Shown piece by piece: positions 2,911 to 47,783 of a DNA stretch of 64,000 nt. How positions within the stretch are numbered: position 1 is the stretch's first letter; every line of letters starts with the position of its first letter. Both the position numbers and the translations under genes were made by a program. Origin of the DNA: Candidatus Krumholzibacteriota bacterium (lineage in GTDB: Bacteria; Krumholzibacteriota; Krumholzibacteriia; JAJRXK01); contig JAJRXK010000090.1 of the NCBI GenBank assembly GCA_024276305.1, positions 42,794-106,793 on the forward strand, written 5' to 3'. A model generated the notes under the pieces. The model did no database searches, was not told the origin of the DNA, and worked only from the letters and a program-made list of their open reading frames with translations.

Positions 2911-2982
2911 GGGCCCATAGCTCAGCGGTAGAGCAAGCGGCTCATAACCGTAAGGTCCCAGGTTCGAATCCTGGTGGGCCCA
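2911..2982 (+). tRNA. tRNA with CAU anticodon (elongator Met or Ile2/lysidine type; not initiator-like, as G1-C71 are paired)
   Basis: Cloverleaf read directly: acceptor GGGCCCA/TGGGCCC, D stem GCTC/GAGC, anticodon loop CTCATAA, T arm CCAGG-TTCGAAT-CCTGG, discriminator A. Confidence 0.85.
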
Positions 2983-2991
2983 GATTCGGGT

Positions 2992-3068
2992 GGGCGATTA
3001 GCTCAGCTGGCTAGAGCGCTCGCCTCACACGCGAGAGGTCACTGGTTCAAGTCCAGTATCGCCCACCA
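2992..3068 (+). tRNA. tRNA-Val (anticodon CAC), CCA encoded
   Basis: Acceptor GGGCGAT/ATCGCCC, D stem GCTC/GAGC, anticodon stem CTCGC/GCGAG with loop CTCACAC, T arm ACTGG-TTCAAGT-CCAGT, followed by ACCA. Confidence 0.85.
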
Positions 3069-4799: not shown

Positions 4800-5190
4800 T
4801 GCGAGTGGGAATCGGACAGGTGGCCGCGGGCTCCGCTTCGGAGCGCGAGGAAAGTCCGAGCACCAAAGGGCAGGATGCTGGGGAAATCCCAGGGGGAGCA
4901 ATCCCACGGAAAGTGCCACAGAGAAGAGACCGCCTAAGGAAGCCTCGGCTTCCCGGCAAGGGTGAAACGGTGGGGTAAGAGCCCACCGCCTCTCCGGTGA
5001 CGGAGAGGGCACGGTAAACCCCATCTGGTGCAAGACCGAATAGGGGGGGAGAGGCGGCCCGCCTCGTTGGACTCCCGGGTAGGTCGCTGGAGCGGAGGGG
5101 GAACCCTTCGCCTAGAGAAATGGTCGCCGCCCCGAGATTCGTGAGAAGCTCGGGGGACAGAACTCGGCTTATGACCGGTTCCCACTCGCT
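4800..5190 (+). ncRNA. rnpB: RNase P RNA (bacterial type A)
   Basis: Universal RNase P RNA blocks read directly: GGAAAGTCCGAGC (P4 5' strand), GGGTGAAACGGTGGGGTAAGAGCCCACC (P10-P12 region), ACAGAACTCGGCTTA (P4 3' strand). A P1 helix pairs GCGAGTGGGAATCGG (about 4801) with CCGGTTCCCACTCGC (about 5176-5189). Ends are approximate to within about 5 nt. Confidence 0.88.
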
Positions 5191-14864: not shown

Positions 14865-15428
14865 ATGGCCATGCTCGACACGATCTACGATGAGGCCCAA
14901 ACCCACATGAAGCGGTGCATCGAGCACCTGCAGAAGGACCTCTCGACTCTCCGCACGGGAAAGGCGACTCCCGCTCTGCTCGACGGGATTCTCGTCGAGG
15001 CCTACGGGTCGAAGATGCCTCTCAATCAGGTCGCGACCCTGGCGTCGCCTGAGCCTCGTCTGCTGACCGTGGCTCCCTTCGACGCATCCCAGATCGGCGC
15101 GATCGAGAAGGCCCTGCTCGCGAGTGACCTCGGGATCACTCCCAACAACGACGGTCACATCATTCGTCTTCCGATCCCACCTCTGAACGAAGAACGCCGC
15201 AAGGAATTCGCGAAGATGGCCCGTCAGAAGGGCGAGGACGCCAAGGTGGCGATTCGGGGTGTGCGTCGGGATGCGAACGAGGGCCTCAAGAAGGCCCAGA
15301 GCGCTTCGGAGATCACCGAAGACGATCTGCATCGGGGACAGGACCGGATCCAAAAACTCACCGACGAGTACACCGCGCAGGTGGACAAGATTCTCGAGGC
15401 CAAGGAAAAAGACATCCTCGAGGTCTGA
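14865..15428 (+). CDS. frr: Ribosome recycling factor
   Basis: 187 aa; ...LRTGKATPALLDGILVEAYGSKMPLNQVA...IRLPIPPLNEERRKE is RRF. Confidence 0.93.
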   Translation: MAMLDTIYDEAQTHMKRCIEHLQKDLSTLRTGKATPALLDGILVEAYGSKMPLNQVATLASPEPRLLTVAPFDASQIGAIEKALLASDLGITPNNDGHIIRLPIPPLNEERRKEFAKMARQKGEDAKVAIRGVRRDANEGLKKAQSASEITEDDLHRGQDRIQKLTDEYTAQVDKILEAKEKDILEV

Positions 15429-15440
15429 CTCCGAACCGCC

Positions 15441-16748
15441 TCAGGACTCTTCGATCTCTTCGCGGATTCCGTAGCCTTCGAGGTCGGTGAGCACCACGTC
15501 GTAGATCTCCCGGTGCACGGGGATGCAGACTCCTCGTCGAGTGATGCTTCCGTCGAGAATCCGCCGGGCTGCGCAGGCTGCGGGCAGTCCCACGGTTCGG
15601 GCCATGGCGCTGTCGCCGTGGGAAATGCCATATTCCACCATCAGCGATCGAATCTGGTGCGGCGCCTGGCCGGCGTCCACATAGTCGACCTCGGTGTAGA
15701 GGATCAGCATGTCCCTCTGCCCTTCCTCGAAGCGCAGGCGACGGTCCATTCTCTGCACGAGTAGGTCGAGACGGGTGGGAGTCTCGAGTCCCACTTCCTC
15801 TTCGTCGAAGAGGCCCAGCCACTGGAGGCGGTCGAGGAGCGGGTGCTCCGGCTCGAGGCCGAGAAAGGCCGCGGTCGCATCGCGCGGAGAGTCCCCGCCG
15901 GCGGCCCCTGCGAGTTCTCGGGCGAGGTCTGCGTAGGTCCTGGCGCCGGTCCCGAGGTCTTCGACATAGCCCAGTCGAGCCAGCGCGGCCCAGGTCTCGC
16001 ACCACCCCGAGAAGCGGAGCGAACCGCGAAACATGCGATCGAGGTCGCGCAATCCGTATTCTTCGACGAATCGGAGGGAATCGCCGTTGGGATAGGATTC
16101 GAAATCGCCGAGGCCATCGAGGTGAAGGGCGCGGGGAGATTGGAAGATCTCGAAAGGTCCTGCCACCACGACCTGTCCGTCGCGGAGGAACTGGGCCGGA
16201 CGTCGTCCGGCCAAGGCCACGCCTCGGGTGCTCCAAGAGATCTTGTATCCCAGGGGGTTGTCATTGGCCTCGGGAGCGGGGAGGCCACCACACACCGAAT
16301 ACACTCCGGTGACCCGTCCGCCCGCGTCGCGGACGGAGTCGATGATGCGCATGGCCTGCATGTGGTCGATTCCGGGATCGGCACCTACCTCGTTGAGGAA
16401 GGTCAGGCCCTGGGCCTCGGCTTTCAGGTGGAGGGCGCGCATCTCGTCACTGACATAGGACGTGGTCACGAAATGGATCCCACGCCGGAGGCAGGCGGTG
16501 GCGACCCGCAGGTGGAAGCTCACGGGGAGCAGGCTGATGGCCAGGTCCGCTCCCTCGAGACGCGAATGCACCGAGTCGAGATCGGTGGCGTCGACGTCGA
16601 TCACTCGACCATGAGGGTGACCGTCCAGCATGGCTCGACCGACTTCCGGCTGATCGGTGGCGACGAGAAGGTCGTGTCCACTCTCGAGGAGAGCACGGAT
16701 GGCCGGACGGGCCACATGGCCCGAACCGAAGACGACCACTTTCTTCAC
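15441..16748 (-). CDS. Saccharopine dehydrogenase (NADP-binding, AASS C-terminal-domain-like)
   Basis: Rossmann N-terminus KKVVVFGSGHVARP and the Sacchrp_dh-family body. GTG start at 16748 overlaps the upstream LKR gene stop (GTGA). Convergent with frr, with only a 12-nt gap. Confidence 0.8.
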   Translation of the reverse strand: MKKVVVFGSGHVARPAIRALLESGHDLLVATDQPEVGRAMLDGHPHGRVIDVDATDLDSVHSRLEGADLAISLLPVSFHLRVATACLRRGIHFVTTSYVSDEMRALHLKAEAQGLTFLNEVGADPGIDHMQAMRIIDSVRDAGGRVTGVYSVCGGLPAPEANDNPLGYKISWSTRGVALAGRRPAQFLRDGQVVVAGPFEIFQSPRALHLDGLGDFESYPNGDSLRFVEEYGLRDLDRMFRGSLRFSGWCETWAALARLGYVEDLGTGARTYADLARELAGAAGGDSPRDATAAFLGLEPEHPLLDRLQWLGLFDEEEVGLETPTRLDLLVQRMDRRLRFEEGQRDMLILYTEVDYVDAGQAPHQIRSLMVEYGISHGDSAMARTVGLPAACAARRILDGSITRRGVCIPVHREIYDVVLTDLEGYGIREEIEES

Positions 16749-18097
16749 GATGGGCCTCGCTGCAGGTCGGAGGGATGAGCATGACGGGCGAGCGCCGCGC
16801 CGAGGGCTTCTTGCCACTGAGGGAGAAGTTGGCCTTGGACTGCAATATAGGCTCCTCCCAGCGCGGCGGGGAAGTCGGGATCCTCGGGGCGAAGAGCGAT
16901 GTCATCACGGGCCAGAGCGGGCAGGAGGGGAGAGAGAACTTCACTGAAGTGCCGGGACGCGTCGACCGGAATCTCGGCGGGCAGGATGTCGACGGCCCAG
17001 ATTGCGATGCCTTCGCCGGATAGCCCGTCTTCGATGGTCTCGCGCACCGGATTCCAGACATAGGAGGGATTGCCCGGCTCGGTGGTCTTCACCAAGACTT
17101 CGTTGGATCCGTCGGGATCGCAGGTGATGTCGGTGATCACCTTCAGGCGGGTTCTTCCCGGCCCATTCCACACCGTCCGCAAGTCTTCGCGCAGAATGAA
17201 CTTGGGGTAGCCCTCGGACCACAGGATTCCGTAGACCACGGCGCTGAGGAATTCCAACTGCCGGCCGAATCGGCTGCGGTAGAGTTCGGGATGGGCGAGA
17301 TAGTCTTGGAAGTCATAGACATGATCGTGGTCCCGGGCCTCCACTAGATCTCGCGGATCGTAGCTCACGAACCAGAGGGCGTGGGTTCTGCCCTCGTGGG
17401 AGGCGACCTTCGCAGCCAGATCCTCGGCCTCGACTTCCTCCGCCCCCGCGGCGCGGAGCACTTCCATGGCCCCACTCCAGACTTTGCCTCCCTCGCCGGT
17501 GACTCCGATCACCAGGGGAGAGATCTCCGCCGGCAGTCCTTCGTCGGCGATGCGGCGGGCGGCCGCCTCGATGGCTTCGAGGGCCGCGGCGACGTCGCCG
17601 TAGTCTCGGGCGGGAAGGAGCTCCGCCAAGGGGCTTCGGTGACCCTCTTCCAGGAGTCGTTGACCGAGGGCGTGCAGGGTGTCGATGGTCCCCGCGAGGC
17701 CCGCGTGGCGACCGAAGGCCACGGTGCGAATTCCCCGCTCGTCGGTGATGAGTTCGTAGTCGAGAAGGGTGCAGCCCTGGTCCAAGATGCGTTGGAGAAG
17801 GGGCATGTTGTAGGGCTGCCTCTTGATGGTGTGGGAGAAGAAGAGGTAGGTGCGATGGGGGAGGATGTCTCCGACCGGCACCTCTTTCACCCCCAGGATT
17901 ACGTCGGCGTCTCGGAGATCGTCCACCAATTCCGCGCCGGCCGCTTCGAAGGCCGCGTCCTCGATGCAACGGCGGGGCGAGCGCTGGACGAGGAAGTGCA
18001 GCCCCTGTTGACGGAGGCGGGCGAGGTCCTCGGGCACGATCGGCACGCGCCTCTCCCAGACGGATTTGTCCTCGCGGCGGATTCCGATGGCGGCCAT
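16745..18097 (-). CDS. Lysine-ketoglutarate reductase / saccharopine dehydrogenase (NAD+, L-lysine-forming), AlaDH/PNT fold
   Basis: IGIRREDKSVWERRVPIVP...TYLFFSHTIKRQPYNMPLLQRILDQGCTLLDYE...RGIRTVAFGRHAGLAGTIDTLHALGQRLL resembles the LKR domain of eukaryotic AASS. ATG at 18097 is preceded by AAAGGA; the track ORF's 81-aa N-extension is rejected. Confidence 0.78.
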   Translation of the reverse strand: MAAIGIRREDKSVWERRVPIVPEDLARLRQQGLHFLVQRSPRRCIEDAAFEAAGAELVDDLRDADVILGVKEVPVGDILPHRTYLFFSHTIKRQPYNMPLLQRILDQGCTLLDYELITDERGIRTVAFGRHAGLAGTIDTLHALGQRLLEEGHRSPLAELLPARDYGDVAAALEAIEAAARRIADEGLPAEISPLVIGVTGEGGKVWSGAMEVLRAAGAEEVEAEDLAAKVASHEGRTHALWFVSYDPRDLVEARDHDHVYDFQDYLAHPELYRSRFGRQLEFLSAVVYGILWSEGYPKFILREDLRTVWNGPGRTRLKVITDITCDPDGSNEVLVKTTEPGNPSYVWNPVRETIEDGLSGEGIAIWAVDILPAEIPVDASRHFSEVLSPLLPALARDDIALRPEDPDFPAALGGAYIAVQGQLLPQWQEALGAALARHAHPSDLQRGPS

Positions 18098-18338
18098 GGG
18101 CGTCCTTTCTCGGCACAGAGCAGCAGGGGGGTCCGTCCGGCCCGGATCGCCGAGGCGGGAATCCTGGCATCCTAGTCTCGTCTGACTCCGAGCGCAATGT
18201 GGGCATGGTGAGGCTTCTTGTTGCGTCACGGACCCATTTTGAGCACTATCATCTTCTCGCGAGCCATTTGATCTCGAGCCGCCGCCCGTGCGGGCGTTGC
18301 GCCCCCTCGACCTGAAGAGAATCCCGTAGGCTGCACCC

Positions 18339-19088
18339 ATGAGTACCCACGTCGCCGAAGCTGAACTCGACCGGGAGATCCGTCAGCGGGGGAACCTCCC
18401 CGCTCACATCGCGGTGATCATGGACGGCAATGGGAGATGGGCGCGCCGGCGGGTGATGCCGCGGATCGCGGGCCATCGGGCGGGCCGTCACGCGGTGCGA
18501 GAGACGGTGCGGACCTGTGCTCAGCTGGGTGTGGAGGCGCTGACCCTCTACACCTTCAGTCGTGAGAATTGGAAGCGCCCCAGTTATGAGGTGCGCGCAC
18601 TGTGGGCGTTCCTGGAGGAGGTGTTGCGGACCGAGTTCCTCGAGCTCGACGAGAACAATGTCCAGCTCATGGCCAGTGGGGATCTCTCTGCGATTCCCGC
18701 ATCCACGCGTCGTGCGCTGTCGGAGGCGAGTTCGCGACTAGAGAAGAACGACGGGATGGTCCTCAACCTCGCCCTGAACTACGGCGGACGCGACGAGATC
18801 GTCCACGTCACTCGTCGCTTCGCGGAGGATGTGAGAGCGGGACGGATGCAGGTCGAGGACATGACGGAGTCCCTCTTCCAGACCTATCTCTTCGCGCCGG
18901 AACTTTCGGATCCCGATCTTCTGATCCGCACCAGTGGAGAGTTGCGTCTCAGCAACTTTCTGCTCTGGCAGGCCGCTTACTCGGAGATCTACGTGACCAA
19001 AGTCCTGTGGCCGGATTTCCGGCGCCGAGACCTACTGGAAGCGATCGCCGAATACCAACGACGTCATCGCCGTTTTGGTGGAGTCTGA
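18339..19088 (+). CDS. uppS: Di-trans,poly-cis-undecaprenyl-diphosphate synthase
   Basis: HIAVIMDGNGRWA...LTLYTFSRENWKRP...LIRTSGELRLSNFLLWQAAYSE are the UPP synthase motifs. Confidence 0.92.
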   Translation: MSTHVAEAELDREIRQRGNLPAHIAVIMDGNGRWARRRVMPRIAGHRAGRHAVRETVRTCAQLGVEALTLYTFSRENWKRPSYEVRALWAFLEEVLRTEFLELDENNVQLMASGDLSAIPASTRRALSEASSRLEKNDGMVLNLALNYGGRDEIVHVTRRFAEDVRAGRMQVEDMTESLFQTYLFAPELSDPDLLIRTSGELRLSNFLLWQAAYSEIYVTKVLWPDFRRRDLLEAIAEYQRRHRRFGGV

Positions 19089-25205: not shown

Positions 25206-28200
25206 ATGGCATGGATCCGTCGCACCCGGGTGACTCTCCTCGTGGGCCTGCTTCTGGCGCTCGCGACTCTGGCGTGGCTGGTGGCGCATCCGTCCATCTA
25301 CTCCGGACAACTCGGTCGGATCATCACTGACAATCTGCTCCGCAAGTCCGGAGCAGCTCTGACCTTCGAGAGTCTCGACGGGAATCCTCTCCGAAATCTG
25401 ACCTTTCACACCGTCTCGTTGACCCGTTCGTCCGAGGATGGGAGCTTCGTCTATCTCACTGCGGACAGCCTGTCCATCGACTATGACCTGCGATCCTTCT
25501 TCACTCCCTCCCCTCATCTACGCTCCTTGGTTCTGGGCCCGGCCCAACTCCTGGTGCGTCGGCCCGCCGGAGACGATCCGGTACGCGAGGCGTCGGGTGT
25601 CCGCCTCTTCGATGCTTCGGTCCAAGTGGACTATGCCCGTCTCGATCACCTCGAGGTCTCGGTGACCGAATCTTCCGGCGATCAGCTCGACGGCTGGGAG
25701 GACATCCAGTGGGTGGGGTCCGTGCGGACGGGGCTGGATCACAGCGTCCAGATCCACACCGCTCGTCTGGCGGGACGATGGGGAAGAAGGGATCTCACCC
25801 TGCACCGCGCCAGTTTCGACGCGGTGATCCGCGGGCGTGAGGTGCAGGTGAAGACGGCGGCGGTGCGGCTCGACAGCACGCTGGTCGACTTCGATCTGGA
25901 CCTCACCCGGTCGGTGGGCGGGGGCGTGGACCGTTTCGTCCTCGAGGCAAGGGCGGAGGCTTTCTCCCTCAACGAGATCCTCCGGCTGTTGGGGAAGGAT
26001 CCCGGTCCGCGTCTGAGCCTGCAGGGGAAGGCGCGGCTCGACTATTCGAATCGGGTCCTGCGCCTCGGAGGAGCGGTGGAAGGATGGTTGGGAAGCTATC
26101 CCCTCTCGGCGAGGTCCTTCGAGGCCTCGGTGGATTCCACCGGGCTGCACCTCGCCAGGGCGGAGGGGACCTTCCTCTCCGCGGTGGGGGAGGTCCGCGG
26201 GGACCTGGACCTGCAATCGGGACTTCTGAGTCTGGAGGGGGGCTTCTCGGGGGCGGATCTCTCCGATCCCTGGGTCCCGACGGGCCGCCGTTGGCCCGCC
26301 TGTCGCCTCGGTGGCCGGGTGAAGATGGAGCTCAATGCCCGTCCTCCTCTGAGGCTGGACCTCGAGTTGTCCCGGCTTCGCGGTGACATCGTGGGGTTGC
26401 CCGTGGACTCCGCCCGCACCCGACTCCGTTTCCGGGAGGGAGAGGGTCTGGAGATCCTCTCCGGCCGCGCTCGGATTCTGGGCACCGGCTTCGCGATCAC
26501 CGGCTCCGTGGATGCCCTCGACCGCGCCGAAATGGCCATCACCCTCGAGGGATCGGATTCGAAGCCCTGGCAGGATCGCTTCGACTTGCCTCTTCGGGCC
26601 GAGGACTACACCGCGGTGGCTCGCATTTCGGGGGTCGTCGATTCCCTTGCCCTGAGGGTGGGTGGGGTTGCGGCACGTTTGAACGGTCCCTCGGTCCGAA
26701 GCGAGGACAATGCCTTCGTGGTCGACTTGCCGCGGGTCGCCGATCTCAGCCGGGCCCGAGGGCAGTTGCGGGCGGGGCGATCCCGGATCCGGGGCTTCGA
26801 CGGTGGAGAAGTTCGGATCGATTTCGAGAGAGAGGGTGATCGGCTGCGGGTCGAGCCCATGCAGCTCTCCCTGTCGGACTCCGTCCTGCGATGGACGGGA
26901 GCGGTGGATTGGTCGCGGGGCACGCCCACGGTAGAGCTCGACTCCCTCGAATTCAGGACTTCCGCTCAGCACTGGTGGTTGGAGGAGGCATCTCGGGTCG
27001 ATCTCTTTGCCGATGGATTGCGCACCGAGGGTCTTCGGTTGCGCAGCGAGGCGGGCCGGCTGCAGATGGTGGGAAGCGCCCGGATAGATGCGAATCTCAG
27101 CCTCCGTCTCGGCGTCGAAGATGGCGACCTGGCTTCTCTCCACCGCCTGGGACTCCTCACCACCGCCGCTTCGGGCCATTTCGACGCGGATCTGGAATTC
27201 GGGGGGAGCCTGGACCGGCTCCTGGCTCGGGTCCGCGTCGAGGTGGCGGACGCGGAGGTCGGAGGTCGGTCCCTGGGACAGGGTCGCTTCGAGGCCCGCG
27301 TCGAGGGACGAGAGGTGTTTCTGGACCGGGTATCGGTGCGAGGCGGATTGGGGGGACTGGAGGTCGCGGGAAGAGTGACGACCCCGGCGGACGATTGGCC
27401 TCGGACCCTGGTGAACACTCCGCAGGCCTTGGGCGACCTCTGGAAACAGTCCGTGCTGGACCTCAGCGTGGTGACCGACACCCTGGCCACGGCTCCACTC
27501 CTCGACCCCGCGGCGGCGCGGCGGCGATTCGGCCTGGTCTCCTCGGACCTTCAGCTGCGGGGGACTCCGCTGCACCCTCGCCTGGTCGGCGACTTGGACA
27601 TCCGGAGGATCGAGACCTCCGCCCTGGTGGTGCCTCGTCTGCGCGCGCGCATCGAGAGCGACGAGCGGGGAGTTCATGTGGGACAGGGCAGCCTGGGAGT
27701 GGAGAAGCCCTGGCTGGAGGTGGCGGGCTACTTGCCCCTCGACCTCTCGCTGGCGGGCGCGCCGCACTGGAATGCCGCCGACGGCCTGCAGTTGCGGATC
27801 TGGTCGCCGTCGGAGGTCGACTTGGCTCCCCTGATGGATTTCTGGCCTCTGGCGAGAGCCGTCCGTGGTCGCGGCGACTTCGAATTCGTCGCGGTGGGCG
27901 ATCCCAGCGCTCCGCAGCTCTCGGGCACCATCGAATTGCACGATGTGGAGCTGGGTCTGCGGGGTTGGTCGGAGAGCCTGCGCGAGGGTCAGCTGGAAGC
28001 CCATTTCGAAGGCAATCGACTGGTGATCGATCGCCTCGAAGCCCGGGAGGGCGCAAAGGGGAGAGTGCAGGCCCACGGTGAAGTGATTTTTCGGGGGTTG
28101 TTGCCCGATGATGTCTGGGCCGATTTCCGCCTCCACCGGGTGCTCCTGGCCAGCGTCCCCTATTTGCGAGCGGTGGGGAGCAGTGACGGCCTGCGTCTGC

Positions 28201-29096
28201 GTCTCGCACGTCCGAGCCCCGACGCACCTCGAGCTCCTCACCTCACGGGGACGGTGCAGGTGGACAAAGCCATCTACACCGGCGAATTCGCTTCTGGAGG
28301 CGGGGCGGAGTTCTTCGGACCGAATCTGACGCCGCAGTGGACCGCAGATCTGGCCATCCACGCCCGTGAGCAGGTGCGAATCAGCAACCAGAGCGCCGAG
28401 TTGCGGGTGCTCGGAGATGTGGACCTCATTCGCGACACCGCGGGTTTGCGATTCCGGGGAACGGCCGAAATCCCGCGGGGCCAGGTGCCTCTCTTCAACA
28501 ATGATTTCAACATTCTCTCCGGAACCCTCGATTTCAGCCGTCGTCCGGTCGAACCCGAAGTCGACATCACCGCCGAAACCGAGGTTCCGATTTACGATCC
28601 GGGGGAAGGGGGAGGTCGCCAGCTCGAGCGGATCACCATCCATCTCACGGGAACCTTCGCTCAGCCCACGGTGACCTTCACCAGCGAGAATGGCCTGGAC
28701 GAGAACAGCATTCTGCGCTTGCTCGCCGGTTTTGGAGGGCCCAGCGAATCCACCACCGTTTCCTCGGGGGTCTCCGATGTGGGACTGCGCGCGGGATTGA
28801 ACTTTCTCGAGCGGGCTCTGGCGCAGAGAGTGCGAGGGGTGGACACCATCGACATCGAGACCGAAGAAGTCGGAGTGTCCCAAATGCAGTCCACGCGCAT
28901 CGCGGTGGGGAAATACCTGTCGGAGAGCCTCTACCTTCGGTTGAGTCAGGGACTGTCGATCACCGAGCGGGACCTCTTCCTCGAATACCAGATTTCTCGC
29001 CGGCTCCTGTTCACGAGTGAATTGAGGCGCAGACTCCGGGAGAATGGGGCCGAGAACCAATTCAATGTGGACATGAAGTTCCGGGTGAAGTACTGA
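25206..29096 (+). CDS. tamB: TamB / AsmA-like translocation and assembly module protein (DUF490 C-terminus)
   Basis: 1,296 aa. N-terminal TM anchor LLVGLLLALATLAWLV, long beta-rich repetitive body, and DUF490-like C-terminus ...ERDLFLEYQISRRLLFTSEL...FNVDMKFRVKY. ATG directly abuts the bamA stop (TAGATG). Confidence 0.8.
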   Translation: MAWIRRTRVTLLVGLLLALATLAWLVAHPSIYSGQLGRIITDNLLRKSGAALTFESLDGNPLRNLTFHTVSLTRSSEDGSFVYLTADSLSIDYDLRSFFTPSPHLRSLVLGPAQLLVRRPAGDDPVREASGVRLFDASVQVDYARLDHLEVSVTESSGDQLDGWEDIQWVGSVRTGLDHSVQIHTARLAGRWGRRDLTLHRASFDAVIRGREVQVKTAAVRLDSTLVDFDLDLTRSVGGGVDRFVLEARAEAFSLNEILRLLGKDPGPRLSLQGKARLDYSNRVLRLGGAVEGWLGSYPLSARSFEASVDSTGLHLARAEGTFLSAVGEVRGDLDLQSGLLSLEGGFSGADLSDPWVPTGRRWPACRLGGRVKMELNARPPLRLDLELSRLRGDIVGLPVDSARTRLRFREGEGLEILSGRARILGTGFAITGSVDALDRAEMAITLEGSDSKPWQDRFDLPLRAEDYTAVARISGVVDSLALRVGGVAARLNGPSVRSEDNAFVVDLPRVADLSRARGQLRAGRSRIRGFDGGEVRIDFEREGDRLRVEPMQLSLSDSVLRWTGAVDWSRGTPTVELDSLEFRTSAQHWWLEEASRVDLFADGLRTEGLRLRSEAGRLQMVGSARIDANLSLRLGVEDGDLASLHRLGLLTTAASGHFDADLEFGGSLDRLLARVRVEVADAEVGGRSLGQGRFEARVEGREVFLDRVSVRGGLGGLEVAGRVTTPADDWPRTLVNTPQALGDLWKQSVLDLSVVTDTLATAPLLDPAAARRRFGLVSSDLQLRGTPLHPRLVGDLDIRRIETSALVVPRLRARIESDERGVHVGQGSLGVEKPWLEVAGYLPLDLSLAGAPHWNAADGLQLRIWSPSEVDLAPLMDFWPLARAVRGRGDFEFVAVGDPSAPQLSGTIELHDVELGLRGWSESLREGQLEAHFEGNRLVIDRLEAREGAKGRVQAHGEVIFRGLLPDDVWADFRLHRVLLASVPYLRAVGSSDGLRLRLARPSPDAPRAPHLTGTVQVDKAIYTGEFASGGGAEFFGPNLTPQWTADLAIHAREQVRISNQSAELRVLGDVDLIRDTAGLRFRGTAEIPRGQVPLFNNDFNILSGTLDFSRRPVEPEVDITAETEVPIYDPGEGGGRQLERITIHLTGTFAQPTVTFTSENGLDENSILRLLAGFGGPSESTTVSSGVSDVGLRAGLNFLERALAQRVRGVDTIDIETEEVGVSQMQSTRIAVGKYLSESLYLRLSQGLSITERDLFLEYQISRRLLFTSELRRRLRENGAENQFNVDMKFRVKY

Positions 29097-29262
29097 CCCT
29101 CCCCGATGCGGAGGGGTGGAGAGCGACGCGGCATGTGAACAAGAGACCGGAGATTTGACCGGCCCCGGCCGAGTCCAGTATCCTTGTTGCAGATACGGAC
29201 GCTTCCCATCCTCGCCGCTTTCGCGCCCGGTTGCCTGCATCGCCCCCGAGACAGGACTCGTG

Positions 29263-32200
29263 ATGCTCTCGATCCTTTCCGTGCGTTTGCGCCCTGCCGC
29301 TGTGATTGGCGCTCTCTTCGTGCTGGTGTCGATCATGGGCTCGGTCGGCTCCGCCACCGCGCAGTTCTTCGGACGCAACAAGGTCCAGTACGAGAATTTC
29401 GATTGGAAGATTCTCAACACTCCCCACTTCGAGATCTTCTTCTATCCCCAGGAAGAGCAACTCGCGGCAAGGGCGGGAGTGATCGCCGAGGATGCCTATG
29501 CGCGGTTGAGCGGGATTTTCGACCACGATCTGAGCAAGCGGATCCCCTTCGTGCTCTACGCTTCGCCCAACGACTTTCAGCAGACCAACATCAGTGATGG
29601 GCTGATCGGCGAGGGGACCGGCGGGTTCTCCGAGCCCATGCGCAATCGAATGGTACTTCCCTATCCGGGTGACAACGCTGGATTCGTCCACGTGATCAAT
29701 CATGAACTCGTCCATGTCTTCATGTTCGACATCGTTTTCGGGAGCACCCAGTCCGGAGGTGCCCGGGACCGATGGTTCCAGGTTCCGCTGTGGTTCGCGG
29801 AGGGGATGGCCGAATGGTTCAGCAGCGGTTGGGACGATCAGGCCGACATGTGGATGCGCGATGCCACGATCTACGACTGGGTGGTACCCCTGCACCGCAT
29901 CTACGGGGGGTTCCAAGTCTACAAGGAAGGTCAAGCGGCACTCCACTATGTGGCCCAGACCTACGGCGAGCCCAAAGTCGTCGAGGTGTTCAAGGCCCTC
30001 GGACGGACTCGGGACGCGGATCGCGCCGTGGAGCAGACCATCGGTCTGAATACCGAAGAGCTCTCCGAAGCCTGGATGAAGTCACTGAAGCAGGGCTATT
30101 GGCCTCTCTATGGGAACAAGCAGGAGCCCGAAGATCTGGGTCGTCGTCTCACCGACCACTGGAAAGAGGGAGCCTACTTCTTCCAGCAGCCCGCGTTGTC
30201 GCCCGATGGACGCTACATTGCGATGTTCAGCGACTACGACGGATTGGTGAATCTCTACCTGATGGACGCGATCGAGGGAAGAGTGCTCCGCAAGTTGGTG
30301 ACCGGCTATCGGAGCAATCAATTCCTGACTTTTCACAGCTTCGAGAGTTCGATCAGCTTCTCTCCGGACAGCGAGGCGGTGGCGTTCATCGCGAAGAGTG
30401 GGCGAGACGAGCACCTGTTCGTGATCGATGTCGAGTCGGGGAAGGTGCTCCGGGACATCGGGCTGCAGATGGACATCGCGCGAAGCCCGGCCTGGTCTCC
30501 GCAGGATGGGCAGGTGGTCCTGAGTGGAACGCGGAGAGGACAGACCGACCTCTACCTCGTCGACCTCGATCTCGGCGAAGTGAGAGCTCTCACCGATGAC
30601 ACCATCGACGAGCATTCCCCCGCCTGGTATCCCGATGGACGTCGGATTCTCTACAGCGCTCATCCCGCGACCACCGAGGACTTGTCCTTCATTCGCGACG
30701 AGGACGGCACCGTACGCATCGAAGGAGATCCCCTGCGCAAACCGACGCTGATCGAGGCGGATTCCGGATTCGATCTCTATCGTCTGGCGCTGTCCACCGG
30801 AGAAACGGAGATCGCGGTCTCGACTTCGGGAGACGACACCGACCCCTTCGTGGTGAACGACAGCACCATCGTCTTCATTTCGAATACCACCGGAGTTTCG
30901 AATCTGTGCAGCTTCGACGAGAGTTCGGAGCAGGTCCGTCGCCTTTCCGATGTGCTGGGAGGGGTGTTCCAGCCCAGTATGAGCCGCGAGACCGACCGCT
31001 TGGCCTTCACCGTGTTCAACCACGCGGGCTTCGACATCTTTCTGCGCGAGAATTTCACCGAGTTGCTCTCCGCGGAGGGTTTTCCGCTGGAAGCAGAGAC
31101 CGAATTGGTCCAGGCCCCACCGAGGCCCGACCCGGTGGAGGGGTCCGGCGAGGGGACGGCCGGTGAGGCCGGCGCGGTCACTACGGAGCTCGAACCCCTC
31201 GGGAAGCGGGTGGTGGCGGAGGTTGCGCGGGCGGATACCCATCGATCGACCGGAGGGGGCGTGGTGACCGTGGCCACGATGCCGGCCGCCCCCGACTCGG
31301 CTGCCGCCGATTCAGTCCTTGCCCCCAGCCCGGAGGAGTCCGAGGCTCCGGATATGGAAGAGTTGGTCGCCGCGGCGGTGGCGGTCGCGGACAGCGGCGG
31401 AGCCGGAGATCCTTCGATCGGAACCGTCGAACCCTACCGACTGCGCTTCTCGCTCGACCCCTACAGCGCAACCGGCGGGGGTGGGGTCTTCTACGCTCAG
31501 GGCCTGGGTTTCGGCGCGGCTCAGCGGATTTCGCTCAGCGACCTCCTCGGCAACCACCGAATGAGCTTCTTGATCAACTTCTACGGTTCGATCAAGAACA
31601 GTGATCTGGCGGCCAGCTATACCTACCTGAAGCGGCGCGTGAACGTCTCGGGGGGAGTGTTTCACTACCGGAACATCCTCAACAGCAACTTCACCAGCAT
31701 CGGCGAGGTCTTCGACAACAATCGCCTGTTCACCGAACGCAACTACGGGTTGTTCGGCCTCGCGAGCTATCCCTTCTCGCAGTTCAATCGACTCGATTTC
31801 GAGCTTCAGGCCTTCGTGAGCGACAAGAGCTTCTTCGAATACAATCGCTTCACCGGCTTCTACGAGCAGGTGGGGGAACGGCAGAGAGATACGCTGGTCC
31901 AGCCCTCCTTGACCTATGTCCACGATTCCACTTTCTACGGGCAGTACGGTCCAGTGACCGGCAGCCGGTGGCAAGTTTCCTTCTCGCCCGCCATCCCGGT
32001 CGGCGGCGAGCAGGGTGTCGATCGCACTACGAGCTATGTGGACTACCGGCGCTACTTCCGGCTCTGGGACCGCAATGGCTTGGCGCTTCGGTTCATCGGG
32101 GCGCAGAGCGTGGGCGGTCAACCCCGCAAGTTCGTCATCGGAGGAGCCCAGACCCTTCGGGGTTGGGATATCTTCGACTTCGAGCGAGTGAATGCCGACG

Positions 32201-32553
32201 GTAGTCCACGCCACCCCAATCTGGTGGGGAGCAAGATGTTCATGTTGAATCTGGAATACCGTTTTCCCTTCGTGGACGCGCTCATTCTGGGATGGCCGGG
32301 GCGTTTCGGGATTGGAGGGATTTCGGGCGCGGTTTTCATGGACACCGGGGCAGCCTACGACGGGGCCTTCCGATTCTTCAGTCGGACCGAGAGCGGGACG
32401 CGGCGACTCCAGGACTTGAATGCGGATTTCGGCTTTGGTATAAGGGCGAATGTCGGTTGGTTGCCACTTCGCTTCGATTGGGCGTGGAAGACCGATCTCG
32501 CCGAGACCAGCAACGATATTCGCTATTCCTTTTCGATCGGCCCGTCCTTCTAG
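29263..32553 (+). CDS. Multidomain outer-membrane protein: signal peptide, HExxH gluzincin-like metallopeptidase-like domain, TolB-like PD40 beta-propeller, long low-complexity linker, Omp85-family (bacterial surface antigen) beta-barrel
   Basis: Signal MLSILSVRLRPAAVIGALFVLVSIMGSVGSATAQ. HINHELVHVFMFD followed by LWFAEGMAEWF (HExxH with a downstream Glu). PD40 repeats (SPDGRYIAMFSDYDGLVNLYLMD, SPDSEAVAFIAKSGRDEHLFVID, SPAWSPQDGQVVLSG...TDLYLVDL, SPAWYPDGRRILYSA). Gly/Ala/Pro/Glu-rich linker. C-terminal barrel with GGAQTLRGWDIFDF, GAVFMDTGAAYD, terminal ...RYSFSIGPSF. The track start (29116) is trimmed to the Met that begins the signal peptide. Confidence 0.8.
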   Translation: MLSILSVRLRPAAVIGALFVLVSIMGSVGSATAQFFGRNKVQYENFDWKILNTPHFEIFFYPQEEQLAARAGVIAEDAYARLSGIFDHDLSKRIPFVLYASPNDFQQTNISDGLIGEGTGGFSEPMRNRMVLPYPGDNAGFVHVINHELVHVFMFDIVFGSTQSGGARDRWFQVPLWFAEGMAEWFSSGWDDQADMWMRDATIYDWVVPLHRIYGGFQVYKEGQAALHYVAQTYGEPKVVEVFKALGRTRDADRAVEQTIGLNTEELSEAWMKSLKQGYWPLYGNKQEPEDLGRRLTDHWKEGAYFFQQPALSPDGRYIAMFSDYDGLVNLYLMDAIEGRVLRKLVTGYRSNQFLTFHSFESSISFSPDSEAVAFIAKSGRDEHLFVIDVESGKVLRDIGLQMDIARSPAWSPQDGQVVLSGTRRGQTDLYLVDLDLGEVRALTDDTIDEHSPAWYPDGRRILYSAHPATTEDLSFIRDEDGTVRIEGDPLRKPTLIEADSGFDLYRLALSTGETEIAVSTSGDDTDPFVVNDSTIVFISNTTGVSNLCSFDESSEQVRRLSDVLGGVFQPSMSRETDRLAFTVFNHAGFDIFLRENFTELLSAEGFPLEAETELVQAPPRPDPVEGSGEGTAGEAGAVTTELEPLGKRVVAEVARADTHRSTGGGVVTVATMPAAPDSAAADSVLAPSPEESEAPDMEELVAAAVAVADSGGAGDPSIGTVEPYRLRFSLDPYSATGGGGVFYAQGLGFGAAQRISLSDLLGNHRMSFLINFYGSIKNSDLAASYTYLKRRVNVSGGVFHYRNILNSNFTSIGEVFDNNRLFTERNYGLFGLASYPFSQFNRLDFELQAFVSDKSFFEYNRFTGFYEQVGERQRDTLVQPSLTYVHDSTFYGQYGPVTGSRWQVSFSPAIPVGGEQGVDRTTSYVDYRRYFRLWDRNGLALRFIGAQSVGGQPRKFVIGGAQTLRGWDIFDFERVNADGSPRHPNLVGSKMFMLNLEYRFPFVDALILGWPGRFGIGGISGAVFMDTGAAYDGAFRFFSRTESGTRRLQDLNADFGFGIRANVGWLPLRFDWAWKTDLAETSNDIRYSFSIGPSF

Positions 32554-40123: not shown

Positions 40124-40276
40124 GCATCGGGCTCGGACTTCGAATGCGGATCGAGGCTCTTGACATTCGCGACCGAGTTGCGATACACCTGCCTTTCGCC
40201 TCCCTCCCTCGCGGACGGGAGGCATTGTTGTCTTCGATCCGCGCTTTCTGCCTCCCGCAGGAAGGGATCGAATTCC

Positions 40277-40933
40277 ATGACCGAAACACGCACTTCACTC
40301 CTCGCCGGATTCATCGCGCTGAGCCTGGCGTGGGGCCTGGTGATCGCCGCGGCCGGCCCGGCCCAGGCAGCTCTGCGCATCAGCGAGATCCTCTCGGCTC
40401 CCGCCTCGGACTGGGACGGCAATGGCAGCGTCGAGTTCAAGGGAGACGAGTGGGTGGAGATTCTCAATACCGGACCCAATCCCGAGGTCCTCGACGGTGT
40501 CTACCTGAAGGATGGGACCGGCGATGCCTATCACTACGGTTTCAGTGGAACCCTGGCTCCCGGTGAGGTCTTGGTGGTCTACGGATCGCAGGCGATGGTC
40601 TGGCAAGCTGCGAACGGAGCCGGGACCAGTGGCCTGAGCCTAAACAACGGAGGAGACCGGGTGGAGCTCTGGCGGGACACCGACTCCCCCCGGATCTTCC
40701 AGGCCCTCGATGTGGTTCCGGTGCCCGCCCATGCCGCGGGGGCCGAACGCTCCTTGGGTTGGTCGGAGACCAGTTCGAAGTGGTTGCTCCACGACGGGGC
40801 CAATCCCTACACGGGGTCGGCGCTGCCCGCTGGAACCGGGTGTGCACCCAGCCCCGGGGTCCGGAATTCCTGTGATGGGTTGGTGCCCGTCGAGACCACG
40901 GACTGGAGCACTCTGAAGTCTCTCTACCGCTAG
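40277..40933 (+). CDS. Secreted lamin-tail-domain (LTD) protein
   Basis: Signal MTETRTSLLAGFIALSLAWGLVIAAAGPAQA. LTD-like core ISEIL...EWVEILNTGPNPEVLDGVYLKD...Y.F.GTLAPGEVLVV. ATG at 40277 is preceded by GAAGGGA. Confidence 0.65.
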   Translation: MTETRTSLLAGFIALSLAWGLVIAAAGPAQAALRISEILSAPASDWDGNGSVEFKGDEWVEILNTGPNPEVLDGVYLKDGTGDAYHYGFSGTLAPGEVLVVYGSQAMVWQAANGAGTSGLSLNNGGDRVELWRDTDSPRIFQALDVVPVPAHAAGAERSLGWSETSSKWLLHDGANPYTGSALPAGTGCAPSPGVRNSCDGLVPVETTDWSTLKSLYR

Positions 40934-40958: not shown

Positions 40959-41975
40959 TTGGGGAATTGGTGGGGGGAGGACTATGATCCCCCCACCATG
41001 ACCTCAACCCAGATGCAGGCGATGTGGAATGCGGCGAGCGGGGGCGATGCTTCGGCCCTCGACGAGATCTTTGCGAGTCTCCAGCGGGGACTGCGTGGCG
41101 ACACCGTTCTCTTCGGGGAGCTCTGGTCGGCGCGGCCGACCCCCGAATTGCGAGCCCATCGCATCGGATTGGTCGGACCGCCGGGCACCGGCAAGAGTAC
41201 GGTCCTCGGTCACCTCGCCGCTCGGCATCCCGAAGCCGAAAAAGTCGGGGTGGTCTCGGTCGACGCCACCGGCCATTGTGGCCAAGGCCACCGTCTCGGC
41301 GATCGGCTGCGGATGAATGCCCTCGACCTCGCGCCCAACTTGTGTGTGCGGACCCTCGACGTGCGGCCGGGCGACCCCGCGCCGGGCCTCTTCGCCAGTT
41401 TGAGCGCGGATATCTTCGACGCCCTGGGCTGTGACCCCATTTTCCTCGAGTCGGTGGGAATGGCCCGAGCTCAGGTGGAGATCGTGCGCCGGGTTCACAC
41501 CGTGGTCTTGCTCGTCCCGCCATCGGTGGAGGACCCCGACCAGCTCGTCGCCTCCGGTTTGCTGGATTTGGCCGATCTGGTGGTGCTCAATAAATGTGAT
41601 CTCGAGGGGGCGGAGGCCGTGGCCGCCACTCTGGATCGCGCGCTGGCGAGCCGGTCGGGCGAAGACGATCCGCGACCGGATCGCGTCTTTCGCACCACCG
41701 CCCTCCGAGACGAAGGGCTCGACGAGCTCTTTCAGGGCATCCGGACCCACGCGTCCGCCTTGCGCGCAGATGGCGTGTTTGCAAGTCGTTCCAGGGCCCA
41801 GGTCGCGGAGCAGTTGAAATACCTGGTCTTCGAGATGTTGCGGGCACGGTGGCAGGGCGATGTGGGTCTGCGTGCATTGCTCGACGAATGTGCGCGGGGA
41901 GTCCTCGAAGGGGATCGCAATCTCGTCGATACGGCCGACGAGGTCGCTGCCATGGTCACGCCTCCGCGCCCCTGA
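40959..41975 (+). CDS. meaB: MeaB/ArgK-type G3E-family GTPase (methylmalonyl-CoA-mutase-associated chaperone)
   Basis: P-loop GPPGTGKST, ...DPIFLESVG, NKCD motif (VLNKCDL). An alternative ATG start lies at 40998. Confidence 0.78.
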   Translation: MGNWWGEDYDPPTMTSTQMQAMWNAASGGDASALDEIFASLQRGLRGDTVLFGELWSARPTPELRAHRIGLVGPPGTGKSTVLGHLAARHPEAEKVGVVSVDATGHCGQGHRLGDRLRMNALDLAPNLCVRTLDVRPGDPAPGLFASLSADIFDALGCDPIFLESVGMARAQVEIVRRVHTVVLLVPPSVEDPDQLVASGLLDLADLVVLNKCDLEGAEAVAATLDRALASRSGEDDPRPDRVFRTTALRDEGLDELFQGIRTHASALRADGVFASRSRAQVAEQLKYLVFEMLRARWQGDVGLRALLDECARGVLEGDRNLVDTADEVAAMVTPPRP

Positions 41976-41997
41976 GCGTCTTTCCAAATCCCCGACC

Positions 41998-42010
41998 CAC
42001 GATTATCGTG
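41998..42010. promoter_or_regulatory. Perfect 13-bp palindrome CACGAT-T-ATCGTG, a candidate operator upstream of the acyl-CoA dehydrogenase cluster
   Basis: Read directly. Lies about 95 nt upstream of the first ACAD start (42105), in the meaB-ACAD intergenic region. Confidence 0.3.
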
Positions 42011-42104
42011 TACCGGTCCCGCGTGTCTTGCCCCGGGGACCGCCGATTCCAGGACGCCTCGCGCGTCTTGTCGCCGTTGTCATTCACGGTTTCAGGAGCC
42101 ATCC

Positions 42105-43244
42105 ATGCAGCTCAACGAGAACCAGGTCCTCGTGCGCGAGTCCGCACGCCGTTTTGCCGAAGAACGCATTGCCCCCATTGCGGCCGAGATCGACGAAGAA
42201 GGTCGCTTTCCGGTCGATCTGATGAAGGAACTCGGGGAGATCGGGTTCTTGGGGATCACCGTCCCCGAGCAATGGGGAGGTGCGGGTCTCGATACGGTGA
42301 GCTATGCGCTGATCATCGAGGAGATCGCGAAGGTCTGTGGATCGACGGCCCTCGGTGTGGCGGCCCACAACAGTCTCGGATGCATGCCTCTGCTCCTCTT
42401 CGGAAGCGAGGAGCAGAAAAAAGAGTGGCTGCCCAAGGCGGCCTCGGGGGAGCTCTTGGTGAGCTACGGTCTGACCGAGCCGGAAGCCGGCAGTGATGCC
42501 GGCGGCACCAAGACCACGGCCGTCCTCGACGGGGACCAGTGGGTCATCAACGGTACCAAGAGCTGGATCACCAACTCCAATCATGCCGGGCTCTATGTCC
42601 TCACCGCCCTCACCGATCCGGAGAAGAAGACGAGGGGAGGGATCACCGCATTCCTCGTGCCGCGAGGAACTCCGGGATTCGAGGTCGGGAAGAAGGAAGA
42701 CAAGATGGGAATGCGCGGAAGCGACACCGCGCAATTGCTGATGACCGACGTTCGAGTGCCCAAGGAGAACATTCTGGGCACCGTGGGCGACGGCTTTCGA
42801 CAGTTCATGAAGATTCTCGACGGCGGTCGCATCTCCATCGCGGCTCTGGCTCTGGGCCTCGCTCAGGGAGCCCACGACTACAGCGTGAACTACGCGAAGG
42901 AGCGCGAGGCCTTCGGCAAGCCCATCTCCGGCTTTCAGGCGATTCAATGGATGATCGCCGACGCCGAAACTCAGATTCATGCGGCCCGGGAGTTGATTCT
43001 GGAGTCCGCTCGGCTCAAGGACGCCCAGGAGCCCTACGGTCATGTCTCCGCCATGGCCAAACTCTTCGCGAGCGAAATTGCCATGAAAGTCACGAACAAC
43101 GCCATTCAGGTATTGGGTGGCTATGGCTACTGCAGGGACTATCCGGTGGAGAGGATGTATCGCGATGCGAAGCTGTGCACCATCGGCGAAGGCACCAGTG
43201 AGATCCAACGGATCGTGATCAGTCGTCACGTTCTCGATCAGTAG
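42105..43244 (+). CDS. Acyl-CoA dehydrogenase (short-chain/butyryl-CoA type)
   Basis: 379 aa; ACAD motifs [56 protein letters not shown]. Confidence 0.88.
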
Positions 43245-43284
43245 ACCGAGTTTCTCCCAAGGTCTTGTCGAAAGGGATGAGGGG

Positions 43285-44472
43285 ATGACCAAGAAAGTGG
43301 TGATTGCATCTGCCGCCCGTACGGCGATCGGAGGGTTCCAAGGCGGATTGGCTCCGGTCAAGGCCACGGACCTCGGTGCGGCGGCCATTGCAGAAGCCGT
43401 GCGACGAGCCGGAGTCGATGGCGAGCAGGTCGACGAAGTGGTGATGGGCTGTGTGCTTCCCGCGGGCTTGGGTCAGAATCCGGCGCGGCAGGCCACCATT
43501 GCCAGCGGGCTGCCCGACCGCGTGAGCGCGATGACCATCAACAAGGTCTGCGGAAGCGGCTTGCGTGCGGTGGCCCTCGGAGCCCAGGCGATCAAGGCGG
43601 GCGACGTGGGCCTGGTGATCGCAGGGGGCTTCGAGTCGATGTCCAATGTGCCCTACGCTCTGCCCAAGGCCCGTACTGGCTATCGAATGGGGCACCAGCA
43701 GGCCATCGACCTCATGATCCAGGACGGGCTCTGGGACGCGTACAACGACTTCCACATGGGGATGACCGCCGAACTAGTGGCGAAGGAATACTCGATCAGT
43801 CGCGAAGAGCAGGACGCTTACGCGGTGGAGAGCCACGCCAGGGCGATCGCCGCGCAACAGGCTGGCCGTTTCGATTCGGAAATCGTCGGAGTCGAGGTGA
43901 AGACGCGCAAGTCGACCCAGGTCGTGGATCGCGACGAGGGTCCCCGCGCGGATTGTTCCATGGAGACGCTGGCGCGCCTGCGTCCCGCGTTCCAACGCGA
44001 AGGCGGGACCGTGACTGCGGGCAACGCCCCCAGCGTGAACGACGGCGCTGCGGCGGTGGTGGTGGTCGATGCCGATCGTGTGGACGACTACGGCATCAAG
44101 GGATGGTTCGAGATCGAGGCTTATGCGACGGGACCTCGGGAGCCCGAGTGGGTGATGATGGCTCCGGTGAAGGCGGTTCGGACACTGCTCGAGAAGACGG
44201 GGAGCGCGATCGAGGACTTCGATCTGATCGAGTTGAACGAGGCTTTCTCCGTGCAGGCCATCGCGGTCATGCGCGAATTGGACTGCGATTCGTCCAAGGT
44301 CAATGTCAATGGAGGAGCGGTGGCCCTCGGACACCCGATCGGGGCGAGTGGCGCGCGCATTCTCACCACCCTGCTCTACGCCATGGAGGACCGCGGCGCG
44401 GAGCGCGGACTCGCCGCGCTGTGCCTCGGTGGCGGCGATGCGGTGGCCATGAGTGTTCGACGAGTGAGTTGA
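43285..44472 (+). CDS. Acetyl-CoA C-acetyltransferase (thiolase II)
   Basis: [27 protein letters not shown] (active-site Cys), C-terminal [20 protein letters not shown] and [10 protein letters not shown]. Confidence 0.9.
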
Positions 44473-44506
44473 GTCTTCGTCCGAGTGACGGGTAGGAGGA
44501 ATCGAA

Positions 44507-45358
44507 ATGGGAGCGAATAGAGTAGGAGTCGTCGGTGGGGGGACCATGGGCAATGGGATTGCTCATGTCTTTGCGCAGCACGGCAACGACACGGTGTTGC
44601 TCGACGTCGACGACGACGCGCTCGGACGGGCGCGAAGCACGATCGAAGGGAATCTCGCCCGCCAGGTGAAGAAGGAAAAGATCAGTTCGGAGGAAGCGGC
44701 GGCCGCTCTCGAGCGGATCGACTTCACCACCGATCCTTCGGCCATGAAGGGCAGTAGCTTGGTGGTCGAAGCGATCTTCGAGAACTACGAAGCCAAGACT
44801 CGAGTCTACGATGCGATTCTCCCGCACCTCGGAGATGAGTGCATTCTGGCTTCGAATACATCGAGCATTTCCATCACCCAGCTGGCTTCGGCGAGCCGAC
44901 GCGCAGATCGCTTCATCGGAATGCACTTCATGAATCCGGTGCCGATGATGAAGCTCGTGGAGGTCATTCGAGGTCATGCCACTTCCGACGCCACGGCGTC
45001 CAAGGTCGTGGAAATCGCGAAGAGCCTGGGCAAGACTCCTGTGGAGTGTAACGACTATCCGGGCTTCGTGAGCAACCGTATTCTGATGCCCATGATCAAC
45101 GAGGCGATCTTCGCGTTGCACGAGGGCGTGGCCACGGCGGAGTCCATCGACCAGATCATGAAATTGGGAATGGCCCATCCCATGGGTCCTCTCACTCTGG
45201 CCGACTTCATCGGCCTCGACATTTGCCTCGACATCATGGAAGTGCTCTACCAGGGCTTCGCCGACTCGAAGTACCGCCCCTGCCCCCTTCTGAAGAAGAT
45301 GGTGGCAGCCGGATACTTGGGCCGGAAGAGCGGTCGAGGATTCTACGACTACAGTTGA
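44507..45358 (+). CDS. hbd: 3-hydroxybutyryl-CoA dehydrogenase (3-hydroxyacyl-CoA dehydrogenase family)
   Basis: [17 protein letters not shown]-binding motif and 3HCDH N/C domains ([19 protein letters not shown]). Confidence 0.88.
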
Positions 45359-45385
45359 TGTTCCACCCGAGCCGGGAGACCGACG

Positions 45386-46525: not shown

Positions 46526-46569
46526 TCTCGACCCGAGAGCGGCCGGCTCTGCCGGTCGGGAGGACAGGG

Positions 46570-47715: not shown

Positions 47716-47783
47716 GGTCCGCTGCGGCGCAGGATAGACTCGTCGCAACCATGACCATCGGTCGCATCCCCCGCCGGGGCTCC

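Follow-up and report, generated by a model that had tools for sequence, protein, structure and literature searches.

Experiments with Ruegeria pomeroyi have verified the saccharopine pathway of bacteria, as stated in two papers that both refer to Neshich 2013 on this point (PMC4334477; PMC7253579); that study (Neshich et al., 2013, ISME J) is also cited in PMC9084900, and the title of a paper on bacterial saccharopine-pathway genes (Serrano et al., 2012, FEBS Lett) is cited in PMC9490328. Separate bacterial genes for lysine-2-oxoglutarate reductase (LKR; LOR when the corresponding domain of the bifunctional eukaryotic enzyme, AASS, is meant) and for saccharopine dehydrogenase (SDH), as well as a functional bacterial pathway, have already been known since 2012-2013. 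Serrano and colleagues are said to have found the lkr and sdh genes of Silicibacter to be contiguous. Here, we describe a pair of genes of this kind in a 64-kb stretch of DNA from an uncultivated bacterium, Candidatus Krumholzibacteriota (assembly GCA_024276305.1, contig JAJRXK010000090.1, positions 42,794 to 106,793 of the forward strand). This whole stretch is called the window; coordinates are positions in it, and L-numbers designate the loci with which it was compared. We hold it likely, and with considerable confidence, that the pair is a two-gene operon, probably translationally coupled, in which a gene for a monofunctional LKR precedes one for a monofunctional SDH, and which would encode the start of saccharopine-dependent lysine catabolism as a normally inherited module.

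Both genes lie on the minus strand. lkr (18097..16745) runs from an ATG at 18097 to a TGA at 16745 and codes for 450 residues, predicted to form a monofunctional, saccharopine-forming lysine-2-oxoglutarate reductase of the AASS-LOR type; sdh (16748..15441) runs from a GTG at 16748 to a TGA at 15441 and codes for 435 residues, predicted to form a glutamate-forming saccharopine dehydrogenase/reductase of the Lys9/AASS-SDH type. The TGA of lkr and the GTG of sdh have 4 nt in common (16748-16745, minus strand), and the GTGA overlap proposed in the initial annotation can be read directly in the minus-strand sequence (...ggc cca tcG TGA aga aag tgg...). The start codons are backed by homologues, which share the first residues MxxxGIRREDK for LKR and MKKV.V.G.G for SDH, and Shine-Dalgarno-like AAGGA and GAGG motifs are found upstream of the chosen starts. 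A longer version of the lkr frame, reaching 18340, was considered and discarded: it is not conserved as coding, with indels of 9, 41 and 7 nt relative to two related loci. With these indels upstream, and with all homologues starting at MxxxGIRREDK, the frame up to 18340 does not represent the real gene. Antisense within sdh lies a shadow open reading frame (ORF; 15843-16778, plus strand, 311 aa) with a coding-like G+C content at third codon positions (GC3) of 0.73, which fooled a simple GC3-based gene caller; such frames are typical of GC-rich genomes, and this one is not evidence of a gene.

The product of lkr is a homologue of the AASS-type LKR/LOR (EC 1.5.1.8) and, as judged from its sequence, would be expected to share its activity. 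Residues 2-425 align with residues 6-438 of the human AASS LOR domain (8E8U; E = 3e-70 in a search of the PDB, in which 8DDA was likewise matched), at 34% identity. This end-to-end match, together with the catalytic residues kept, agrees with the earlier identification of the upstream gene as an LKR resembling the N-terminal half of AASS, and both peptide strings quoted at that time are present in the lkr translation. Yeast Lys1 (2Q99/3UGK) is matched with an E-value of 2e-13, over the N-terminal half only. In the alignment with Lys1, K71, H89, R17 and R124 of LKR correspond to K77, H96, R18 and R131 of the yeast enzyme, in which we take R18 and R131 to be the arginines that contact the substrate carboxylate; the four LKR residues are invariant across 43 bacterial homologues. 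K77 and H96 of Lys1 are the acid-base catalytic Lys/His pair (Kumar et al., 2012, as cited in PMC9490328). Pfam detects a single domain in LKR, AlaDh_PNT_N (PF05222; 1e-24), which covers the N-terminal part of the protein. An identity as alanine dehydrogenase was nevertheless ruled out: alanine dehydrogenases and the related transhydrogenase alpha subunits (AlaDH/PNT) are matched only at about 1e-3 (7e-4 in the PDB search) and over short stretches, as against 3e-70 for LOR, and the score of 27.5 bits with the TIGR00518 alaDH equivalog model is far below its cut-off of 391.85. The possibility that the best homologues would prove to be AlaDH/PNT enzymes instead of LKRs, raised in the initial annotation, can therefore be set aside.

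The product of sdh is a homologue of the Lys9/AASS-SDH type (EC 1.5.1.9/10), with a predicted activity to match. It carries the Pfam domains Sacchrp_dh_NADP (PF03435; 2e-16) and Sacchrp_dh_C (PF16653; 1e-65) and matches, over approximately residues 2-429, the saccharopine reductase of Magnaporthe (1E5L; 1e-80; 36% identity), yeast Lys9 (2AXQ; 1e-71) and the SDH part of human AASS (5L76; 2e-65). At the level of motifs, GSGxVxRP, DPGIDH, CGGLPAPE..DNPLGYKxSWSxRGV and YPNxDS are kept in the alignments with the solved enzymes. The full-length match to 5L76 confirms that the downstream gene is a Sacchrp_dh-family SDH resembling the C-terminal half of AASS. Moreover, the description of the pair as a split version of the bifunctional eukaryotic enzyme holds, in that both halves of AASS are matched over their full length and their order is kept.

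The pair is not peculiar to the window. Among 5.8 billion proteins searched, 878 match the window LKR at E ≤ 1e-10; the best 120 of the 878 are mostly unfused proteins of about 430-450 aa (a few are shorter and partial), all from prokaryotic genomes or metagenomes, with 40-73% identity to the window LKR. In a pattern scan with each GTDB species represented by a single genome, LKR was present in at least 578 species representatives from more than 15 phyla; the carriers among the matches listed include Chloroflexota, Acidobacteriota, Planctomycetota, Gemmatimonadota, Bipolaricaulota, WOR-3, Myxococcota and Zixibacteria, as well as Calditrichia, Ignavibacteria, Spirochaetes, Bacteroidales, Eisenbacteria, Krumholzibacteriia and one Thermoplasmatales archaeon. 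A separate scan of metagenomes added at least 566 contigs. An SDH homologue lies directly downstream of lkr and on the same strand in 129 of the 162 loci examined, with a median spacer of 34 nt (122 pairs measured); the identical 4-nt overlap recurs in 15 of these 122 pairs, the nearest clade included (L003, L005, L006 and L086). The identities of the LKR and SDH homologues to the window proteins are correlated (r = 0.84), and the trees of both proteins have the same loci as nearest neighbours of the window. Thus, lkr followed by sdh is a conserved prokaryotic two-gene module, whose order matches the domain order of fused AASS-type proteins. The unfused operon is much broader among uncultivated bacteria than the remark "rare in prokaryotes", as it stands in PMC9084900, would suggest. 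A variant occurs in a Thermoleophilia metagenome-assembled genome (L059, 8296-10955), in which two tandem SDH paralogues, with identities of 36% and 45% to the SDH of the window, stand after lkr.

A rival reading takes the two proteins to be opine-type or other amino-acid dehydrogenases, acting for example on ornithine-derived or polyamine-related substrates and not on lysine and saccharopine. Pfam sees only the N-terminal AlaDh_PNT domain in LKR, neither LKR nor SDH matches any NCBIfam equivalog, and an aminotransferase-like ORF, which is ornithine-aminotransferase-like as judged by its N-terminal sequence alone, stands beside the pair in seven loci. All of this would suit other substrates. 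Over their whole length, however, both proteins can be aligned with structures of genuine LKR and SDH enzymes (34-36% identity), and none of the Lys1/LOR-family residues for catalysis and 2-oxoglutarate binding varies. The two genes are also strictly paired, which mirrors the joining of LKR and SDH in AASS. We regard other substrates as highly improbable, and lysine and saccharopine as the probable ones.

The initial annotation had called the pair eukaryote-type. The representatives of clusters at 50% identity were searched exhaustively with HMMER, giving 560 clusters at E ≤ 1e-30, the best 150 of which were analysed. LKR-SDH fusions, presumably eukaryotic, make up 51 of these 150 representatives and measure 760-1400 aa. 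Their architectures (P0256-P0383) are either direct, at about 850-980 aa, or include an interdomain spacer of about 100-300 aa, at about 1020-1400 aa; several other proteins among the best 150, of 500-700 aa, combine LKR with an unidentified extension. In neighbour-joining (distance) trees, one for each protein, the window LKR and the window SDH each fall in a clade of 63 members with no fused form, all fusions being placed on the other side; both clades hold unfused sequences only, from prokaryotic genomes and metagenomes. Midpoint-rooted and drawn without resampling support, the trees therefore speak against a recent eukaryotic origin and leave the deep history unsettled. The phylogenetic comparison thus fails to bring out a eukaryotic affinity, and the label eukaryote-type does not fit proteins whose nearest relatives are unfused prokaryotic or metagenome proteins with 40-73% identity, as against 34% to the human enzyme.

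The pair is antisense to two plus-strand operons, and the wider order is relA-(dtd)-maf-mtnA-like-rplM-rpsI-rpsB-tsf-pyrH-frr, then sdh and lkr, then uppS-cdsA-dxr-rseP-bamA. frr (14865..15428, plus strand), which closes the rpsB-tsf-pyrH-frr block, encodes a protein with an exact counterpart in the database and the Pfam RRF domain, and uppS (18339..19088, plus strand), which opens the following block, is 86% identical by tblastn to the Prenyltransf gene of L001. frr and sdh converge, with 12 bp between their stop codons as read in the sequence (15429..15440), and no terminator-like hairpin was found in this spacer. The ORF list and the identities of the flanking genes bear out the antisense position between frr and uppS. 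Adjacency of frr and uppS is known from model bacteria, Bacillus subtilis among them, and the initial annotation saw in the pair an insertion into a highly conserved cluster, possibly through lateral acquisition. The comparison with relatives does not support the insertion. In L001, which holds the closest relative of the window LKR (73% identity), uppS, cdsA and dxr are 81-86% identical to their window counterparts and uppS and lkr-sdh diverge in the same manner, with sdh being followed by an FG-GAP/ASPIC gene and not by frr; in L084 (LKR 63% identical), uppS likewise diverges from lkr. Since the uppS/lkr junction and its non-coding blocks (described below) are common to the three lineages, the junction is old. 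Conversely, in four relatives of frr (70-77% identity; L168-L171), the order relA-dtd-maf-mtnA-rplM-rpsI-rpsB-tsf-pyrH-frr is kept and uppS directly follows frr in none. In L168 (7559-10041), two unrelated antisense genes, for a Rce1-like CPBP protease and a DUF389 protein, lie between frr and uppS-cdsA-dxr-rseP; in L169, L170 and L171, frr is followed by FlgD_ig-domain genes or by kinase/ECF-sigma genes, and no uppS was found within about 7 kb after frr in L169 and L171 or in the roughly 3 kb to the contig end in L170. As the gene after frr is never uppS in the four relatives, this boundary is variable in the clade: it is a slot, of which lkr-sdh is one occupant.

A recent horizontal acquisition, in which this genome took up an LKR/SDH cassette of eukaryotic or otherwise distant origin between frr and uppS, would account for a pair that runs antisense to two co-directional core operons, and for the different genes that L168 holds within the same frr...uppS frame. 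It could also draw on the next-closest LKRs, at 57-64% identity, which occur in another conserved context (L003, L004, L164, L165 and L166), with the order TPR protein, Fe/Mn superoxide dismutase, DUF179, lkr, sdh, two Mrp/ParA-type ATPases and Iron_traffic protein; the module was therefore relocated at least once within the group. (L166 lacks sdh, and its lkr is followed by a Metallophos/FlgD_ig gene.) The composition of the pair, however, is that of its surroundings. GC3 is 0.761 for sdh and 0.780 for lkr, compared with 0.763 ± 0.031 for 38 genes of the window (z of -0.04 and +0.57); the z-scores of the synonymous-codon log-likelihood are +0.40 and +0.56; and the dinucleotide signature distance (delta*) of the pair region is surpassed by 42% of equally sized sliding windows. 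The comparison of GC3 and codon usage with the flanking genes leaves the pair indistinguishable from the window. The direct repeats flanking the pair are short and at chance level, no tRNA gene was found beside it (the nearest are at 2911-3065), and neither lkr nor sdh has a Pfam match to an integrase or transposase, the flanking genes being recognised as core through their relatives. Moreover, the uppS/lkr junction and the intergenic blocks are common to lineages whose LKRs are only 63-73% identical, so that the placement is old, and the nearest homologues are unfused proteins of prokaryotic genomes and of metagenomes. A recent acquisition is therefore extremely unlikely, and the idea of lateral transfer loses its footing: relatives show the pair largely as an ancestral fixture, of ordinary composition. 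In this lineage, the pair has probably been inherited normally together with its neighbour uppS.

In the pathway that we propose, transcription would probably start in the divergent region between uppS and lkr, and a single mRNA would serve for the translation of both genes, ribosomes reinitiating at the GTGA overlap. LKR would condense lysine with 2-oxoglutarate and reduce the imine to saccharopine, which SDH would then oxidise on the other side of the nitrogen to give glutamate and 2-aminoadipate-6-semialdehyde/piperideine-6-carboxylate (P6C); both reactions are those known for the two enzyme families. The net effect of these first two steps of the saccharopine route would be the passing of the epsilon-amino group of lysine to 2-oxoglutarate. 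The catabolic direction is suggested because LKR is of the AASS and not of the Lys1 type and because the R. pomeroyi system is cited as catabolic in PMC4334477 and PMC7253579.

Several points weigh against this reading. No aldehyde dehydrogenase domain (Aldedh), as expected of an aminoadipate-semialdehyde dehydrogenase, was detected in the 35 window ORFs scanned beyond the pair, and the same scans found no other lysine-pathway gene in the 64-kb window. The reactions of LKR and SDH are reversible, and sequence cannot fix their direction. SDH is slightly nearer to the biosynthetic fungal Lys9 than to AASS-SDH. No conserved third gene accompanies the pair when all flank ORFs of 80 loci are clustered; antisense shadow ORFs aside, the clusters consist of generic ABC ATPases (nine loci) and the aminotransferase-like ORF mentioned above (seven loci). 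Finally, the neighbour-joining trees are rooted at the midpoint and carry no support values. Some of these points would be accommodated if the pair ran in the biosynthetic direction, as fungal Lys9 and Lys1 do, from aminoadipate semialdehyde through saccharopine to lysine: the chemistry would allow it, the best solved match of SDH is the biosynthetic saccharopine reductase of Magnaporthe, no catabolic partner is linked to the pair, and the pair is present in many uncultivated lineages with undescribed lysine metabolism. LKR, however, is far nearer to the catabolic AASS-LOR (3e-70) than to the biosynthetic Lys1 (2e-13), no Lys2-type aminoadipate reductase (AMP-binding/PCP) was found among the scanned window ORFs or as a conserved neighbour in the 80 loci, and the sole bacterial system cited as tested in PMC4334477 is catabolic. 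Biosynthesis is thus improbable, and lysine catabolism remains the direction that we favour.

A cluster at 40959-47715 (plus strand) comprises genes for a MeaB-type GTPase, three short-chain-type acyl-CoA dehydrogenases (42105, 45386 and 46345), a thiolase and a 3-hydroxyacyl-CoA dehydrogenase. It was considered as a source of the lower lysine pathway and rejected, as the two acyl-CoA dehydrogenases that were compared with solved structures (42105 and 46345) best match short-chain/butyryl-CoA dehydrogenases and not glutaryl-CoA dehydrogenase. The cluster looks like one for generic short-chain beta-oxidation, and we claim no specific link to the pair.

The uppS/lkr intergenic region (18098..18338; 241 bp, divergent) contains conserved non-coding blocks at 18235-18252, 18212-18227, 18193-18198 and 18168-18175. 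On the minus strand, the blocks invariant in the three lineages (the window, L001 and L084) read ATGATAGTGCTCAA, GCGCAA.AAGAAGCC, ATTGCG and CTAGGATG, and the indels between them in the alignment with L001 and L084 have lengths not divisible by 3. A sigma-70 consensus was not found in the region, and Rfam gave no lysine riboswitch or other RNA family at E ≤ 1 in 15300-18500. Possibly, the blocks are promoter or operator elements. As an outside chance, the module, which is widespread in uncultivated phyla and has no aldehyde dehydrogenase linked to it, may serve something other than classical lysine catabolism there: it may run in reverse as saccharopine-dependent lysine synthesis or feed the production of pipecolate or osmolytes, and its placement between frr and uppS, together with the blocks, might then couple its expression to that of the uppS-cdsA-dxr envelope/isoprenoid operon.

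Some further features of the window were noted. Downstream of dnaG-rpoD lie two adjacent tRNA genes (2911-2982 and 2992-3065, plus strand) and a class A bacterial RNase P RNA (4808-5186, plus strand; 297 bits). An ORF of 1300 aa at 25518-29420 (minus strand) has no Pfam match at all, and a protein of 1145 aa encoded at 29116-32553 (plus strand) has an unusual architecture, with Peptidase_MA_2, PD40 beta-propeller repeats and a C-terminal Omp85 barrel; the two ORFs overlap by about 300 nt, and therefore one of the two starts is probably wrong. Between gatB and the MeaB gene, a 257-aa ORF (40160-40933, plus strand) codes for a lamin-tail domain (LTD; 8e-13). At 47712-49776 (plus strand), ispH (LytB) is followed by an overlapping gene of the FMN_dh family, and the operon with dxr, about 27 kb upstream, has this orientation as well; the product of the second gene is possibly a type 2 isopentenyl-diphosphate isomerase.

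What the locus adds is chiefly a matter of annotation: several database homologues are labelled "alanine dehydrogenase" or "hypothetical protein", and the two genes can be named as those of a lysine-2-oxoglutarate reductase and a saccharopine dehydrogenase. Beyond this, its significance is slight. The breadth of the operon across uncultivated phyla, the recurrence of the 4-nt overlap in the clade and the variable slot between frr and uppS are mildly new, and none of them alters the understanding of the saccharopine pathway. With AlaDH/PNT enzymes, the window LKR has the fold of the AlaDh_PNT_N domain in common, but the similarity, at E of about 1e-3 over short stretches, does not make it an alanine dehydrogenase. 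Fungal Lys9 (1E5L/2AXQ) and Lys1 (2Q99/3UGK) share the chemistry and the folds of the pair, and K77 and H96 of Lys1 are kept in the window LKR; Lys1, however, is only distantly related to it (2e-13), the fungal genes are unlinked and their enzymes run biosynthetically. Eukaryotic AASS (human 8E8U and 5L76; plant LKR/SDH) is made of the same two modules, with an N-to-C order that equals the gene order and with full-length homology of each half, whereas the window has two polypeptides and no linker, an LKR with 34% identity to human LOR, and clades without fused forms. A known system close to the pair, as far as the descriptions in the literature allow a comparison, is that of Silicibacter/Ruegeria pomeroyi (SPO3307 for lkr), in which LKR and SDH are also separate bacterial genes without the plant-type interdomain and the predicted route likewise leads from lysine through saccharopine to aminoadipate semialdehyde. 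R. pomeroyi is an alphaproteobacterium, whereas the host of the window belongs to an uncultivated lineage in which the two genes overlap by 4 nt and the pair lies between frr and uppS.

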